Source: an uncultured Chloroflexia bacterium
GTDB taxonomy: Bacteria; Chloroflexota; Chloroflexia; QHBQ01; JADMIH01
DNA length: 64,000 nucleotides
NCBI GenBank assembly: GCA_963797095.1
Contig: CAWCNY010000003.1
Coordinates: 320,001-384,000, forward strand
Reading direction: 5' to 3'
Positions within the stretch are counted from its first letter, which is position 1, and each line of letters begins with the position of its first letter. The position numbers and the translations under genes are program-made. This document shows, piece by piece, positions 28,102 through 42,725 of this stretch. Below the pieces are notes generated by a model. It ran no database searches, was not told the origin of the DNA, and saw only the letters and a program-made list of their open reading frames with translations.

Positions 28102-28367
28102 CTGATAAAAGGTTGCTCATAGTCTCTCCTTTGTCGCATAATTGAAGTAACGTGGAAGCTAACCAATGCTACACGCCACTATTGCCTTCGGGTAGTAGTC
28201 CGCACTTTGATAATGCAAGATGTTAGCGGGTTGTTGCACGAAACCCTTGTGCAGCGTAAAAGCATCTTAGGTGTCTCCTATAGTGCAACCTTAATGGCAT
28301 ATGGATGAGTATGCATCGGTGCAAAACCGTAGAAGCTGCTGGCGTTTACGCCATGCGGAGTCATCAC
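28102..28367 (+). mobile_element. Copy 1 of a non-autonomous IS200/IS605-type element (left end missing); putative omega-RNA locus
   Basis: 265/266 identical to 37778-38043; joined directly to TTAC; ends GAAG-hairpin-TCAC. Confidence 0.85.
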
Positions 28368-35663: not shown

Positions 35664-36647
35664 TTGTCTGACACACCCAACGTGCAAGCACGCAACTACA
35701 TAGAGACCCTGGTAGTTGCCCTGGGCGGGAATGCCATCCAGCAATCGGGCGACAAAGGCACCGCCGCCGAACAACTCGCCAACATAGTCAGCGCCATGAC
35801 CTCCGTAGCCGAGCTTGCCGACCGTGGCTATCGCGTCGTACTGACCCACGGCAACGGCCCTCAAGTCGGCACAATCCTCCTCCAGCAAGCCGCAGCCGAG
35901 GCTACGGAGGGCATCCCTTCCATGCCAATGGATGTTGCCGGGGCCATGACCCAGGGTGGGATCGGCTATATGATGCAACAATGCTTACAAAACGAGTTGC
36001 GTAAGCGTGGAAGGCCCTGGCCCGTCGCCACCGTTGTTACCCAGGTGGTCGTTGACAAAGACGACCCCGCCTTCGCCAACCCCACCAAGCCAATCGGCCC
36101 CTTCTACACCGCCGACAAAGCAGACGACCTGCGCGCAGAGGGCTACACAGTTGTTGAAGATAGCGGCAGAGGTTATCGCCGCGTGGTCCCCTCGCCCCAA
36201 CCCGCCGCACTCGCCGAAATCTACGCCATCCGCACCCTCGTCAATGCTGGTGCTCTGGTGATCTGCTCAGGTGGGGGCGGCATCCCCGTGGTTCGCGACG
36301 CGGATGGCCTGCTTCACGGCGTCGAAGCCGTCATAGACAAAGACCTCGGAGCGTCCCTCCTAGCCCAGCGTCTCGACGCCGACCGCCTGCTCATCCTCAC
36401 CAACGTCGAAAGGGTAGCGATCAACTTCCGCAAACCTGACCAACGCGACCTCGACACCGTCACAATCAAACAAATGAAGCAGTATATAGCCGAAGGCCAC
36501 TTCGCCGCTGGCAGCATGGGCCCCAAAGTACAAGCCGCCCTCGCCTTCGTAGAGTCGGGCGGCCAGGAAGCCATAATCACCCACCTGCACAGCGCTCTAC
36601 CCGCCCTGGAAGGCAAAACAGGCACGCACGTGGTACGCGATGCGTGA
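35664..36647 (+). CDS. arcC: Carbamate kinase
   Basis: VALGGNA, THGNGPQVG, NPTKPIG, EAVIDKD, GSMGPKV; start uncertain. Confidence 0.95.
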   Translation: MSDTPNVQARNYIETLVVALGGNAIQQSGDKGTAAEQLANIVSAMTSVAELADRGYRVVLTHGNGPQVGTILLQQAAAEATEGIPSMPMDVAGAMTQGGIGYMMQQCLQNELRKRGRPWPVATVVTQVVVDKDDPAFANPTKPIGPFYTADKADDLRAEGYTVVEDSGRGYRRVVPSPQPAALAEIYAIRTLVNAGALVICSGGGGIPVVRDADGLLHGVEAVIDKDLGASLLAQRLDADRLLILTNVERVAINFRKPDQRDLDTVTIKQMKQYIAEGHFAAGSMGPKVQAALAFVESGGQEAIITHLHSALPALEGKTGTHVVRDA

Positions 36648-36661
36648 TCTGGCGCGTACTT

Positions 36662-36719
36662 CGTACTGCTTATCTTATACTCGCTACTCGTCACTCGTCA
36701 CTCGTCACTCGTCACTCGC
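36662..36719. repeat. Heptamer array (CTCGTCA)n
   Basis: Read directly between arcC and argF. Confidence 0.8.
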
Positions 36720-36756
36720 AATAATCCTCTTTCGCCCATCAAGAAAGGAGCACACC

Positions 36757-37686
36757 TTGGCAGTAAGCATGAAAGGCCGCAGTTTCATCTCGGTAGCCGA
36801 TTTCACATCAGAGGAGATCTGGAACGTCTGGCAGTTAGCTGCCCAATTGAAAATGAAGCAGAAGATCGGCGAGCCACACCGCATCCTTGAAGGCAAGCAG
36901 CTTGCCATGATCTTCCAGAAGCCGTCCCTGCGCACCCAGGTCAGCTTCGAAACCGGCATGTCTCAGCTTGGAGGCCATGCTATCTTCCTCGGCCCCGATC
37001 ACATCCAGCTTGGCAAACGCGAGAGCGTGCCCGACGTAGCCCGTGTTCTCGGCAGGATGGTAGATGGCATAATGGCCCGCGTCTTCGCCCACAAAGACGT
37101 CGAAGAGCTTGCCGAGTACGCAGGCGTGCCCGTGATCAACGGCCTCTCAGATAGCGAGCACCCTTGCCAGGTCCTGGCCGATCTCTTCACCATCTGGGAG
37201 AAGAAGGGTCGCGTCGAAGGGGTCAATCTCACCTACATTGGCGACGGCAACAACGTAGCCGCCTCCCTCCTTCTCGCGGCGGCGCGTGTCGGCATGAACT
37301 GCACTCTCATATGTCCAGGCGGCTATAAGGTCCCATCTCACTATATACAGGTTGCCCGCGCGGACGCCGTCCACACCGGCTCACAACTGCGCTTCACCGA
37401 AGATCCAATGGATGTCGCAGGCAGCGACGTAATCTACACAGACGTGTGGGCCAGCATGGGACAGGAAGCCGAGGCCAAAGAGCGCGCCCACGTTTTCAAG
37501 CCCTACCAGGTAAACAAAGCCCTGATCGTGCAGGCCGGAGGCCTCCCGTTAGTGATGCACTGCCTGCCCGCCCATCGCGGTCACGAGATCACTGATGAAG
37601 TGATGGACAGTGCCCACTCCGTAGTGTTCGAGGAAGCCGAAAATCGCCTACATGTTCAGAAGGCAGTGATGGCCCTCCTCATTTAA
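36757..37686 (+). CDS. argF: Ornithine carbamoyltransferase
   Basis: FQKPSLRT, HPCQ, DVWASMG, HCLP, EAENR; RBS GAAAGGAG before TTG. Confidence 0.95.
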   Translation: MAVSMKGRSFISVADFTSEEIWNVWQLAAQLKMKQKIGEPHRILEGKQLAMIFQKPSLRTQVSFETGMSQLGGHAIFLGPDHIQLGKRESVPDVARVLGRMVDGIMARVFAHKDVEELAEYAGVPVINGLSDSEHPCQVLADLFTIWEKKGRVEGVNLTYIGDGNNVAASLLLAAARVGMNCTLICPGGYKVPSHYIQVARADAVHTGSQLRFTEDPMDVAGSDVIYTDVWASMGQEAEAKERAHVFKPYQVNKALIVQAGGLPLVMHCLPAHRGHEITDEVMDSAHSVVFEEAENRLHVQKAVMALLI

Positions 37687-37734
37687 TGGCCCTCAAGTAA
37701 TGGGCTTCAAGCCCGCTCCGCACAACCTTCTTAC

Positions 37735-38043
37735 AGAAAACCTTGAAAGCCATGCCCATTTATGGGCTGTGGTTCGGCTGATAAAAGGTTGCTCATAGTC
37801 TCTCCTTTGTCGTATAATTGAAGTAACGTGGAAGCTAACCAATGCTACACGCCACTATTGCCTTCGGGTAGTAGTCCGCACTTTGATAATGCAAGATGTT
37901 AGCGGGTTGTTGCACGAAACCCTTGTGCAGCGTAAAAGCATCTTAGGTGTCTCCTATAGTGCAACCTTAATGGCATATGGATGAGTATGCATCGGTGCAA
38001 AACCGTAGAAGCTGCTGGCGTTTACGCCATGCGGAGTCATCAC
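37735..38043 (+). mobile_element. Copy 2, complete 309-bp non-autonomous IS200/IS605-type element; putative omega-RNA locus
   Basis: TTAC|AGAAAACCTTG-AAAG-hairpin (left end) ... GAAG-hairpin-TCAC (right end); no transposase or nuclease ORF. Confidence 0.88.
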
Positions 38044-38594
38044 AAATCGACAGCAACCGTGCGTGTAGCGGTCCCGCGCCTGACCTCCAGGTTCGTACGG
38101 CCCGCGCTCAACCTGCCAAGCGTAGCGCTCAGGTCGTCCGCTGAACGCACAGGCGTGCCCCCCACCTGCACGATAATGTCACCGGCCCGTATCCCAGCTG
38201 CATCCGCAGGCGACCCCGGCCTCACCGCGCCGACATAAGCGCCCGGCACCGGGTCGCCGCCAGGTAACGCATACTTACTTGCATCCGCCACCTTCGCGCC
38301 TAGCAGCTTGCGCCCTCCTGGGCTACCTTCCGCCGCTTGCCCACCGTTCGCAGCCATCGAATTGATAATCCTCTCCAACCTGCGCTGGTCAAACCCGACC
38401 ACCACCTCACCCCCGATTACCGTCACAGGCACACCCTGCTGTCCTGACTTTCTGATCATCTCGATCGCGGCGGCCCTGTCCTGGTCCACGTACTTCTCTG
38501 TGTACGGCACCCCTCGCTGTGAAAGATACTCCTTCACACGATAGCACCACGGTCAGGTATGTGTTGAATACACCACTGCTTGCGTGTCGTCCAT
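38040..38594 (-). CDS. Selenocysteine-containing glutaredoxin (UPWC) fused to a PDZ domain
   Basis: RBS AAAGGAG, ATG at 38594, MDDTQAVVYSTHT-TGA-PWCYRVKEYL...GQQGVPV; SECIS-like hairpin; PDZ GAYVGAVRPGSPADAAGIRAGDII. Confidence 0.88.
38514..38541 (-). promoter_or_regulatory. Putative bacterial SECIS element
   Basis: UCG-UGUGAAGG-AGUAU-CUUUCACA-G-CGA starting 12 nt 3' of the UGA. Confidence 0.7.
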
Positions 38595-42412: not shown

Positions 42413-42479
42413 CAGAACTTGAACTTCAACCCCCTAACTGCTATACTCAACGCAGCACAACCGAATATCCAAAGGTCAA

Positions 42480-42590
42480 GCAGAGGTCACCCTAAGCCCG
42501 GAAGCTGGGGGTTAATGGGGGAAGCCGGTTAGAGTCCGGCGCTGTCCCGCAACTGTAATCCACCTGGAAAGCCAGGATACCCACCTCTGC
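42480..42590 (+). ncRNA. Cobalamin riboswitch
   Basis: GGGAAGCCGGTTAGAGTCCGGCGCTGTCCCGCAACTGT, AAGCCAG B12 box, P1 GCAGAGGT/ACCTCTGC. Confidence 0.93.
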
Positions 42591-42725
42591 TCTCTCATAC
42601 AACCTTCGCGCGAAAGGGGGTAGGAGCTATGCCAACAGCATTGATGCACCTTCTCACTGCACCACCGTAGTCCCTTCACTCCACATCACATGCAGTAAGC
42701 AGAGATCAGCAGGCACTTCTCGTAA

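Follow-up and report, generated by a model that had tools for sequence, protein, structure and literature searches.

The question raised by the locus described here is what a short stretch of DNA, lodged between two protein-coding genes and devoid of any protein gene of its own, might be and do. It lies in a window of 64,000 nucleotides (nt) from the genome of an uncultured Chloroflexia bacterium (G000:C3:320001-384000), to which all positions given below without a contig name refer. An earlier note on this DNA had interpreted the stretch as a protein-free IS605-type mini-element carrying only the scaffold of a TnpB-style guide RNA. The analysis of the element, of its copies and of its relatives leads us to consider it probable that the stretch, which measures 309 bp (37735-38043, + strand), is a non-autonomous IS200/IS605 element of the kind known as PATE, the sole cargo of which is a standalone guide RNA of the TnpB type (omega RNA). 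The only open reading frame contained within it encodes 49 amino acids (aa) on the - strand and there is no internal protein gene; two + strand frames (55 and 85 aa) begin inside the element and extend into flanking sequence that is specific for this copy.

The motifs listed in the earlier note (TTAC, AAAG, the two hairpins, TTGCTC-N18-TATAAT, GAAG and TCAC) all lie where it had placed them, and the repetition of the stretch in the genome, its strand-specific folding and its G-U pairs take it well beyond what chance would produce. The tetranucleotide TTAC (37731-37734, +) belongs, as the flanks of the copies reveal, to the target and not to the element, and it is the predicted target-adjacent motif (TAM) of a partner TnpB. 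The left-end guide AAAG (37746-37749, +) follows 11 nt past TTAC and is succeeded by a hairpin (37750-37772), while at the other extremity the right-end guide GAAG (38008-38011, +) precedes the hairpin P8 (38012-38034), which has a UUUA loop and a bulged T; the right cleavage site TCAC (38040-38043, +) provides, in the sequence and in the copies, the last bases of the element. Both end hairpins share the TTTA loop and a single bulged T on the 3' arm, and an inverted-repeat scan revealed no pairing between the two termini of the element, that is, no terminal inverted repeats.

A BLAST search of the whole genome, the check proposed in the earlier note, returned seven further full copies, 98.4-100% identical over 312-319 aligned nt, which brings the full copies to eight with that of the window. 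When they are aligned together with their flanks, the similarity starts directly after the tetranucleotide and stops at TCAC in 11 of the 11 aligned rows, the flanks being otherwise unrelated, and the boundaries of all the full copies agree with the 309-bp extent originally assigned. TTAC precedes six of the eight full copies; of the remaining two, one follows GTAC and the other CAAC. The flanks of the copies and the empty sites described below indicate that the element inserts on the 3' side of a constant tetranucleotide and that the target is not duplicated. The near-identity of the eight copies suggests, as far as sequence comparison goes, that they have moved recently. One additional copy is 86% identical (C1:421240-421540). 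On the whole, the copy number, the exact common ends, the TTAC target, the empty sites and the presence in the genome of an IS605 with related ends bear out the description of the stretch as a protein-free IS605-type mini-element.

The site of insertion could be compared with orthologous loci. The element sits in the spacer between the ornithine carbamoyltransferase gene argF (36640-37686, +; OTCace domains) and a convergent gene identified by a domain match as coding for a glutaredoxin-PDZ (Grx-PDZ) protein (38040-38537, -). In two genomes of the same genus, G017 and G018, the two genes are likewise neighbors and the element is missing. The alignment with G017 starts, on the downstream side, at the base that immediately follows TCAC and extends, on the upstream side, up to ...AC, and in G018 the spacer is collinear with both flanks and about 310 bp shorter; these spacer alignments have an identity of about 70-80%, which fixes the junction only approximately. 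The Grx-PDZ stop codon TGA (- strand, 38040-38045) is now provided by the terminal TCA of the element, and in the uninterrupted site TAA would have been read in the same frame from the TTA of the TTAC target, so that the insertion exchanged one stop codon for another and left the Grx-PDZ protein unchanged.

Besides the full copies, the genome harbors shortened and diverged forms. Two copies are truncated at the 5' end, one of them inside the window (28102-28367, +, corresponding to C3:348102-348367; 99.6% identical over 266 nt) and the other at C5:636572-636790 (-). Both have lost the left end and keep the whole RNA; that of the window, which lacks the left-end hairpin, also retains the promoter region. 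TTAC directly precedes both of them despite their different internal starting points, an arrangement to which a rough estimate assigns a chance probability of about 1 in 1000, so that an event at a TTAC site, linked to TnpA or TnpB, appears a more likely origin than random deletion. There is also an internal-deletion derivative of about 100 bp (C6:414979-415123, +), with TTAC in front and TCAC at its end, in which the pseudoknot-hairpin loop follows immediately upon one half of the left-end hairpin. Moreover, seven diverged standalone paralogues differ in sequence and keep the stems. Two diverged copies, at C4:557540-557690 and C2:787433-787580, have a common upstream region in which tandem repeats of about 30 nt replace the usual left end.

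The internal RNA is real. Its predicted start, placed near 37824 by the distance to the -10 box, opens a small leader hairpin (37824-37850, +) recovered as a stem of the alifold consensus. This is followed on the same strand by a 5' domain (37851-37962) that is supported by covariation and comprises the stems P1 (37854-37875), P2 (37878-37882 with 37958-37962), P3 (37885-37888 with 37948-37951), P4 (37893-37900 with 37937-37944) and P5 (37908-37915 with 37925-37932). Downstream, the hairpin P6 (37973-37990) exposes the loop GAUGA (37980-37984), which is the 5' strand of a pseudoknot whose 3' strand UCAUC lies at 38037-38041, both of them supported by covariation; between P6 and P8, the small hairpin P7 (37993-38005) was assigned on pair counts. 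The structured region ends 2 nt short of the last base of the element. The complete structure, which was built by hand, consists of eight stems and the pseudoknot (57 pairs), and all the stems named in the earlier note, including the GAUGA/UCAUC pairing, are formed in it. The statement that the G-U wobbles are compatible with the + strand only was also borne out: seven of the 57 pairs of the window copy are G-U and become mismatches on the - strand, and only the + strand folds better than shuffled sequences (z = -2.46, with 2 of 100 shuffles as good), the values for the - strand being z = -0.35 and 41 of 100.

The helices are maintained by compensatory changes. In 16 distinct sequences from this genome and its relatives (a set that excludes the loci of the unpublished genome G016), 91.0% of 855 alignment cells are paired, versus 72.6% after shuffling and 25-43% with slid partners; 42 of the 57 pairs show compensatory changes, and on none of the five measures did a single one of 500 shuffles attain the observed value. 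The stems, for which the earlier note had asked for such a test, do covary. In a second set of 22 distinct sequences, obtained from 24 loci found by a motif scan, 94.6% of the cells are paired and 37 of 47 pairs are compensatory, P7 being invariant by construction in those 24 loci since the motif spans it. One of these loci, L121, has exactly the score of L032 of G016 (154.1 bits over 189 nt) and may be the same DNA, so that this second set is perhaps not independent of that genome. The pseudoknot helix, predicted in the earlier note, is paired in 100% of the cells of both sets (that is, in 16 of the 16 sequences of the first), and three of its five pairs have changed on both sides; in the right-end hairpin P8 eight of nine pairs are compensatory. 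An alignment of six paralogues made with MAFFT only gave 23 of 56 consensus-fold pairs changed on both sides, with the pseudoknot drawn as a long-range helix.

What kind of RNA this might be is indicated by its kinship with RNAs that overlap the 3' end of tnpB. R1, a covariance model built on the final 191 positions, found 23 matches in the genome, namely 10 near-identical copies, seven diverged standalone ones, the internal-deletion derivative, four tnpB 3' ends and one weak match (E = 0.013). At the four tnpB loci, where only the 3' module is matched, the scores are 34-44 bits (E from 1e-8 to 3e-11 on the loci). The order of the elements in this module is common to the mini-element and to the tnpB loci: pseudoknot-loop hairpin, small hairpin, GAAG, right-end hairpin, end. 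The letters of the pseudoknot differ in a compensating manner, being GAUGA (5') and UCAUC (3') in the mini-element, GACUA and UAGUC in the resident IS605 and in one tnpB-only relative, and GAUUA and UAAUC in a third tnpB element, and several further compensating combinations occur in relatives. In relatives that carry tnpB, the segment running from P6 to the right-end hairpin also codes for the C-terminal tail of the protein (...SIGxQSVEA...); the homologous segment of the mini-element, its last ~70 nt, has 1 nt less between two blocks that are conserved and is out of frame. The earlier claim that the scaffold contains no recognisable tnpB C-terminal coding sequence holds, in this respect, for the 112 nt of the 5' domain, but not for these last ~70 nt. 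As the scaffold abuts the right end of the element, it is the 3' flank that would serve as guide. The covariation including the pseudoknot, the R1 matches at four tnpB 3' ends, the layout resembling that of the ISDra2 omega RNA and the co-occurrence with tnpB in 11 of 11 genomes (see below) are in agreement with the guide-RNA scaffold originally proposed; they support the view that the RNA is a putative TnpB-type guide RNA whose 3' module is homologous to tnpB-linked RNAs, and its use by a TnpB acting in trans would follow by analogy.

The proteins that such an element would need are encoded in the same genome, which has four matches to Y1_Tnp and eight to the TNB domain of TnpB. A complete IS605 with tnpA and tnpB, recognised by its domains and ends, lies at C3:1052786-1054453 (-) and is preceded by TTAC. 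Its left end is 85% identical to that of the mini-element over 78 nt, and the two share AAAG, GAAG, the bulged-T hairpins and the terminal TCAC; an element with related ends and both genes, on the presence of which the earlier note had made its reading depend, is therefore resident in the genome. The TnpA has 129 aa (Y1_Tnp at 4e-38) and the TnpB has 357 aa, with HTH_OrfB, OrfB_IS605 and TNB domains and matches to ISDra2 TnpB chains at 1e-45. In this TnpB (locus L026, C3:1052858-1053928, -) the catalytic D, E and D residues of RuvC are retained by alignment; its third RuvC motif reads HRDVA, where the relevant part of a survey published in PNAS gives DRDxN for this clade (PMC10691335), and a TGA that lies within the pseudoknot hairpin ends the protein about 20 codons earlier than in its relatives. 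A second copy of the IS605 (C1:424130-425693) is 99.9% identical over 1564 nt and lacks the left end. Another TnpB of the genome, with 399 aa, is encoded at C2:1032892-1033980. Three tnpB-only relatives are likewise preceded by TTAC. A tnpB-only relative (L027, C1:22055-23458, -) has a left-end hairpin nearly identical to that of the mini-element and four tandem 12-nt repeats within tnpB, its TnpB match being split into frames of 271 and 123 aa. At C3:703780 and C3:797200, this same left end is followed by unrelated sequence. None of the eight TNB-domain matches adjoins a standalone copy, the nearest being about 2.6 kb away on the opposite strand, and it is this position of the RNA, neither within nor next to a tnpB gene, that defines the standalone form. 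Two BLAST matches limited to the right end were considered as parental tnpB elements and discarded, since they proved to be another mini variant (C3:433438) and the deletion derivative at C6:414979.

The 5' domain of 112 nt has a distribution of its own. Its covariance model (R2) has 39 matches, spread over 11 of the 151 genomes sampled from the class. Around the 18 matches whose neighborhood was inspected, no frame resembling tnpB adjoins the RNA, and nine matches from the class search are without a long same-strand frame that ends at the RNA; a 387-aa frame upstream of L043, a high-scoring RNA match in a relative, considered as a possible TnpB, appeared by eye to be low-complexity and TPR-like, not TnpB-like. 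With filters off, R2 recognised no 5' domain in 12 tnpB loci (best score 9.6 bits, E = 1.9).

Upstream of the predicted RNA start, the promoter-like region consists of TTGCTC (37789-37794, +), an 18-nt spacer and TATAAT (37813-37818). A hexamer fitting the -10 consensus in at least five of six positions is found at a constant upstream distance in nine of 16 relatives under a strict rule, the remaining ones having mostly TATAAG, TATAAC or similar at the homologous position; a TGn precedes the hexamer in 11 of 16 relatives by reading of the upstream sequences, and in six by a strict script count. The case for a promoter depends on this conserved -10 box, which, like the 5' domain, is confined to the form that has no tnpB. 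The promoter of the earlier note is thus upheld as to the position of its motifs and the conservation of the -10, but its -35 is weak, matching the consensus in three of six positions, and the region was not called by a promoter scan.

Across genomes, the RNA was found in company with tnpB. Among 24 other genomes of the same genus, the 5' domain is present in four, TnpB in five (including all these four) and TnpA in eight. In the sample of 151 genomes of the class, 11 have the 5' domain, 62 a TnpB match and 38 a TnpA match; of the 11 carriers of the 5' domain, every one also matches TnpB and nine match TnpA, the other two being 71% and 79% complete. These tallies include two unpublished genomes, G016, which is RNA-positive, and G033. 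A 24-nt motif spanning P7 and GAAG was found at 24 loci (22 distinct) in public genome records assigned to Chloroflexia, Chloroflexales, Ktedonobacteria, Armatimonadota (Capsulimonadaceae and Chthonomonadaceae), Candidatus Chlorohelix and one metagenome-assembled genome (MAG) of the Nitrosomonadales. None of 10 open frames upstream of motif loci (within 400 nt of flank) has a TnpB domain, and four of five further motif-bearing genomes hold TNB-domain matches elsewhere. One motif-bearing genome (G153, that of locus L101), a 7.1-Mb Chloroflexia MAG, is unusually rich in TnpB, with at least 150 matches to the TNB domain.

If the RNA is a guide RNA, the guide of the window copy would be, from what is known of TnpB, the flank-derived segment 38044-38063 (+), which runs antisense to the final codons of the gene for Grx-PDZ. 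The 20-mers that follow 22 scaffold ends are all unique in the genome: none has a second genomic match, and the partial matches do not exceed 17 of 20 positions. The single partial match preceded by TTAC (14 of 15) comes from a tnpB-linked guide. The uniqueness of these 20-mers fits guides that would be aimed only at the element's own empty site.

As for expression, the search of RNA libraries yielded no transcript of the organism itself; contigs from four metatranscriptome libraries, belonging to three studies, match positions 37824-38047 at 80-99% likeness. They run past TCAC into sequences unlike the flank of the window, and 37768-37809 is not covered in any of the four libraries. These contigs behave as transcripts of related elements elsewhere would, which we take as a faint hint. 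In one of them, 19 unmatched letters, which we presume to be the end of a sequencing adapter, precede a match that starts at 37824; this might faintly hint at the RNA start.

On these grounds, the following mechanism can be proposed. In transposition, for which the ends, the target, the lack of target duplication and the empty sites are observed facts, the Y1 transposase TnpA of the resident IS605 would, as we infer, recognise the two bulged-T hairpins, AAAG and GAAG would locate TTAC and TCAC, and the top strand would be peeled out and inserted 3' of a TTAC. Transcription might start from the internal -10 promoter near 37824 and might run through the right end into the flank. The transcript would fold into the 112-nt 5' domain and a 3' module made up of the pseudoknot hairpin, the small hairpin and the UUUA-loop hairpin, with the pseudoknot strand 3-7 nt before the flank, a fold that covariation and the homology to tnpB-linked RNAs demonstrate at the level of sequence. 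A TnpB encoded elsewhere would then bind the RNA in trans, the flank acting as guide and TTAC as TAM, and by analogy with known systems the complex might cut the empty site left by excision, so that recombination restores the element.

A further idea concerns the origin of such elements. It is conceivable, even if we regard it as doubtful and put it forward only tentatively, that the tnpB-less elements represent an old, self-propagating "guide-only" lineage which parasitises both TnpA and TnpB, rather than the outcome of repeated accidental deletions, and which has its own promoter and a dedicated 5' domain. The small hairpin P7, which the tnpB-less forms share in a version 1 nt shorter, and the occurrence of tnpB-less copies in records of Chloroflexia, Ktedonobacteria and Armatimonadota fit this idea. 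If it were correct, an RNA lacking the context of a tnpB mRNA would, thanks to the 5' domain, still be synthesised, kept stable or loaded onto TnpB, and it might perhaps compete with the nuclease's own guide.

Several observations weigh against the interpretation of the element as a carrier of a working TnpB guide. The score of the tnpB-linked RNAs under R1 is 34-44 bits, against 207 for the mini-element; no tnpB in the genome has the exact pseudoknot and right-end hairpin of the mini-element and could be its parent; and the compatibility of the RNA with the resident TnpB is an assumption of ours. The 5' domain has no counterpart in the 12 tnpB loci. As to the promoter, the consensus scan of 37600-38200 for promoters and terminators called no site, because the -35 fits in only three of six positions; the window copy has a perfect TATAAT but lacks the TGn present in most relatives; and the near-identical copies have TATAAT in three cases and CATAAT in six, position 37813, the first base of the -10 (T in three, C in six), being the main polymorphism among them. 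The metatranscriptome contigs stem from relatives, not from the organism of the window, their presence in such libraries does not prove transcription, and their shares in the RNA-library index are only 0.04-0.06. The alignments behind the counts on 16 and 22 sequences were fitted to the model, which favours the structure, so that the MAFFT alignment is the independent check. Finally, genomes that are related do not count as independent samples, a common dependence on IS605 and TnpA would suffice to account for the co-occurrence with tnpB, and the motif-bearing MAG G156 has no TnpB domain, the motif contig being only 1632 nt long and the quality of the MAG being unknown.

Different explanations can be opposed to the one we favour. 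The RNA might have a job that is independent of TnpB, as a regulatory or antisense RNA acting on the gene into which it reads, as a regulator of TnpA or TnpB, or as a decoy of TnpB, with the 5' domain as its functional part. The conservation of this domain with compensatory changes, its absence from 12 of 12 tnpB loci, the element's own -10 box and, in the window copy, a read-through antisense to the end of the Grx-PDZ gene all speak for it. We nevertheless hold it to be unlikely, given that the 3' module is homologous to tnpB-linked guides and keeps the pseudoknot right beside the flank, that the RNA occurs only in tnpB-holding genomes (11 of 11) and that the flanks differ at every copy, so that there is no common antisense target. 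Alternatively, the element might be a decaying deletion remnant of a tnpB element, still moved by TnpA, whose folds are functionless leftovers. It is true that its final ~70 nt go back to the 3' end of a tnpB gene together with the right end, that deletion derivatives exist (C6:414979-415123 and the two 5'-truncated copies) and that the high identity of the copies reflects a recent spread which, by itself, is silent on selection for the RNA. A mere remnant, however, would hardly keep its helices through two-sided changes down to relatives of about 56 bits (42 of 57 and 37 of 47 pairs) and its -10 box, or be found in a tnpB-less form in Chloroflexia, Ktedonobacteria and Armatimonadota with no TnpB domain in any of 10 upstream frames, and we consider this explanation very improbable.

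Just as improbable, in our opinion, is that the folds act only as single-stranded DNA that aids excision and integration by TnpA, no RNA being involved. IS200/IS605 elements move as top-strand single-stranded DNA, which has the same sense as the proposed RNA, so that the strand asymmetry and the G-T wobbles fit the DNA and the RNA readings alike, and the covariation of the right-end hairpin is to be expected from TnpA recognition alone. In IS608, however, TnpA requires just the subterminal hairpins and the guide tetranucleotides, whereas the pseudoknot and P1-P7 are without a known role in DNA; the conserved -10 box and the metatranscriptome contigs point to an RNA, and TnpB elements have this very 3' module as their guide RNA. 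The least credible alternative is that some copies, especially the immobile 5'-truncated ones, are domesticated guides directing a TnpB-like protein to host targets in a TldR-like manner: two copies have indeed lost the left end and kept the whole RNA, one of them with its promoter region, but no guide 20-mer finds a second match in the genome (17 of 20 positions at best) and the resident TnpB retains by alignment its catalytic D, E and D residues. A non-autonomous element carrying a guide RNA for a TnpB encoded elsewhere is thus the reading that we retain.

The element represents a clean natural case of a transposon in which nothing is left but the two ends, a promoter and a guide RNA. With its numerous young copies, its diverged paralogues and candidate TnpA and TnpB proteins that are intact, this one genome offers a convenient test bed for asking how guides are made and loaded without a tnpB mRNA, to what extent TnpB tolerates foreign scaffolds and whether guide-only elements compete with their helpers; the conserved and unexplained 5' domain and the element's own promoter are the points that appear worth following. 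The RNA family is absent from Rfam, no family of which matches inside the element, whether the gathering threshold is applied or E values up to 10 are admitted, and the covariance models R1 and R2 can be used for its annotation. Elsewhere in the window, a weak Rfam match to DUF805b (E = 0.028) falls within argF and was taken as due to chance, and a cobalamin riboswitch is present at 42467-42602 (+; 69.1 bits versus a gathering score of 31.5).

The element can be compared with four known systems. In IS608 of Helicobacter pylori, the work on which established the rule of pairing between guide and cleavage site (of the AAAG-TTAC type), the target is TTAC, the left guide is AAAG, the hairpins are subterminal and imperfect, and there are neither target duplications nor terminal inverted repeats. 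The mini-element shares all these features; it differs from IS608, which carries tnpA and tnpB, in its right cleavage site TCAC and right guide GAAG.

The likeness at the RNA level is with the omega RNA of ISDra2 from Deinococcus radiodurans. In the portions of the structural study that bear on this point (Nakagawa et al. 2023, PMC10097598), positions -5 to -3 (plus -6 and -2) form a pseudoknot with the loop of stem 1, and the last stem (stem 4) has a UUUA tetraloop at -20 to -17. In the RNA described here the corresponding strand lies at -7 to -3, with its partner in the loop of P6, and the UUUA loop at -23 to -20; in both cases the guide is at the 3' end of the RNA. According to the same portions, ISDra2 has stems 2 and 3 (about 55 nt) before the last stem, where only a 13-nt hairpin is found here, and its RNA overlaps tnpB and has a disordered and dispensable 5' region, whereas here the 5' domain is non-coding and conserved.

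The principle of a standalone or guide-only omega RNA is already published, and our finding leaves it unchanged; our literature searches found no paper on this particular RNA family or on its 5' domain. As summarised in a passage of Altae-Tran et al. 2023 (PNAS, PMC10691335), standalone mobilised omega RNAs were described by Altae-Tran et al. 2021 and worked in trans. The present RNA resembles them, to judge from that summary, in being mobilised without an effector or transposase gene while effector loci are present in the same genome; it differs in that theirs were shown to work in trans, while this family is known from sequence alone. The closest parallel is with the PATEs of Geobacillus stearothermophilus, which the relevant passages of a preprint describe as minimal IS200/IS605 elements that "often encode omega RNAs", these having to be used in trans by the TnpB of other IS elements, with TnpA likewise acting in trans (Meers et al. 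2023, PMC10055086). Like those PATEs, as these passages present them, the mini-element is protein-free and has left and right ends in common with tnpB elements; unlike them, it belongs to a host of another phylum and its RNA to another sequence family, and, in so far as text passages permit the comparison, it is set apart by a conserved -10 box of its own and by the additional 5' domain of 112 nt.

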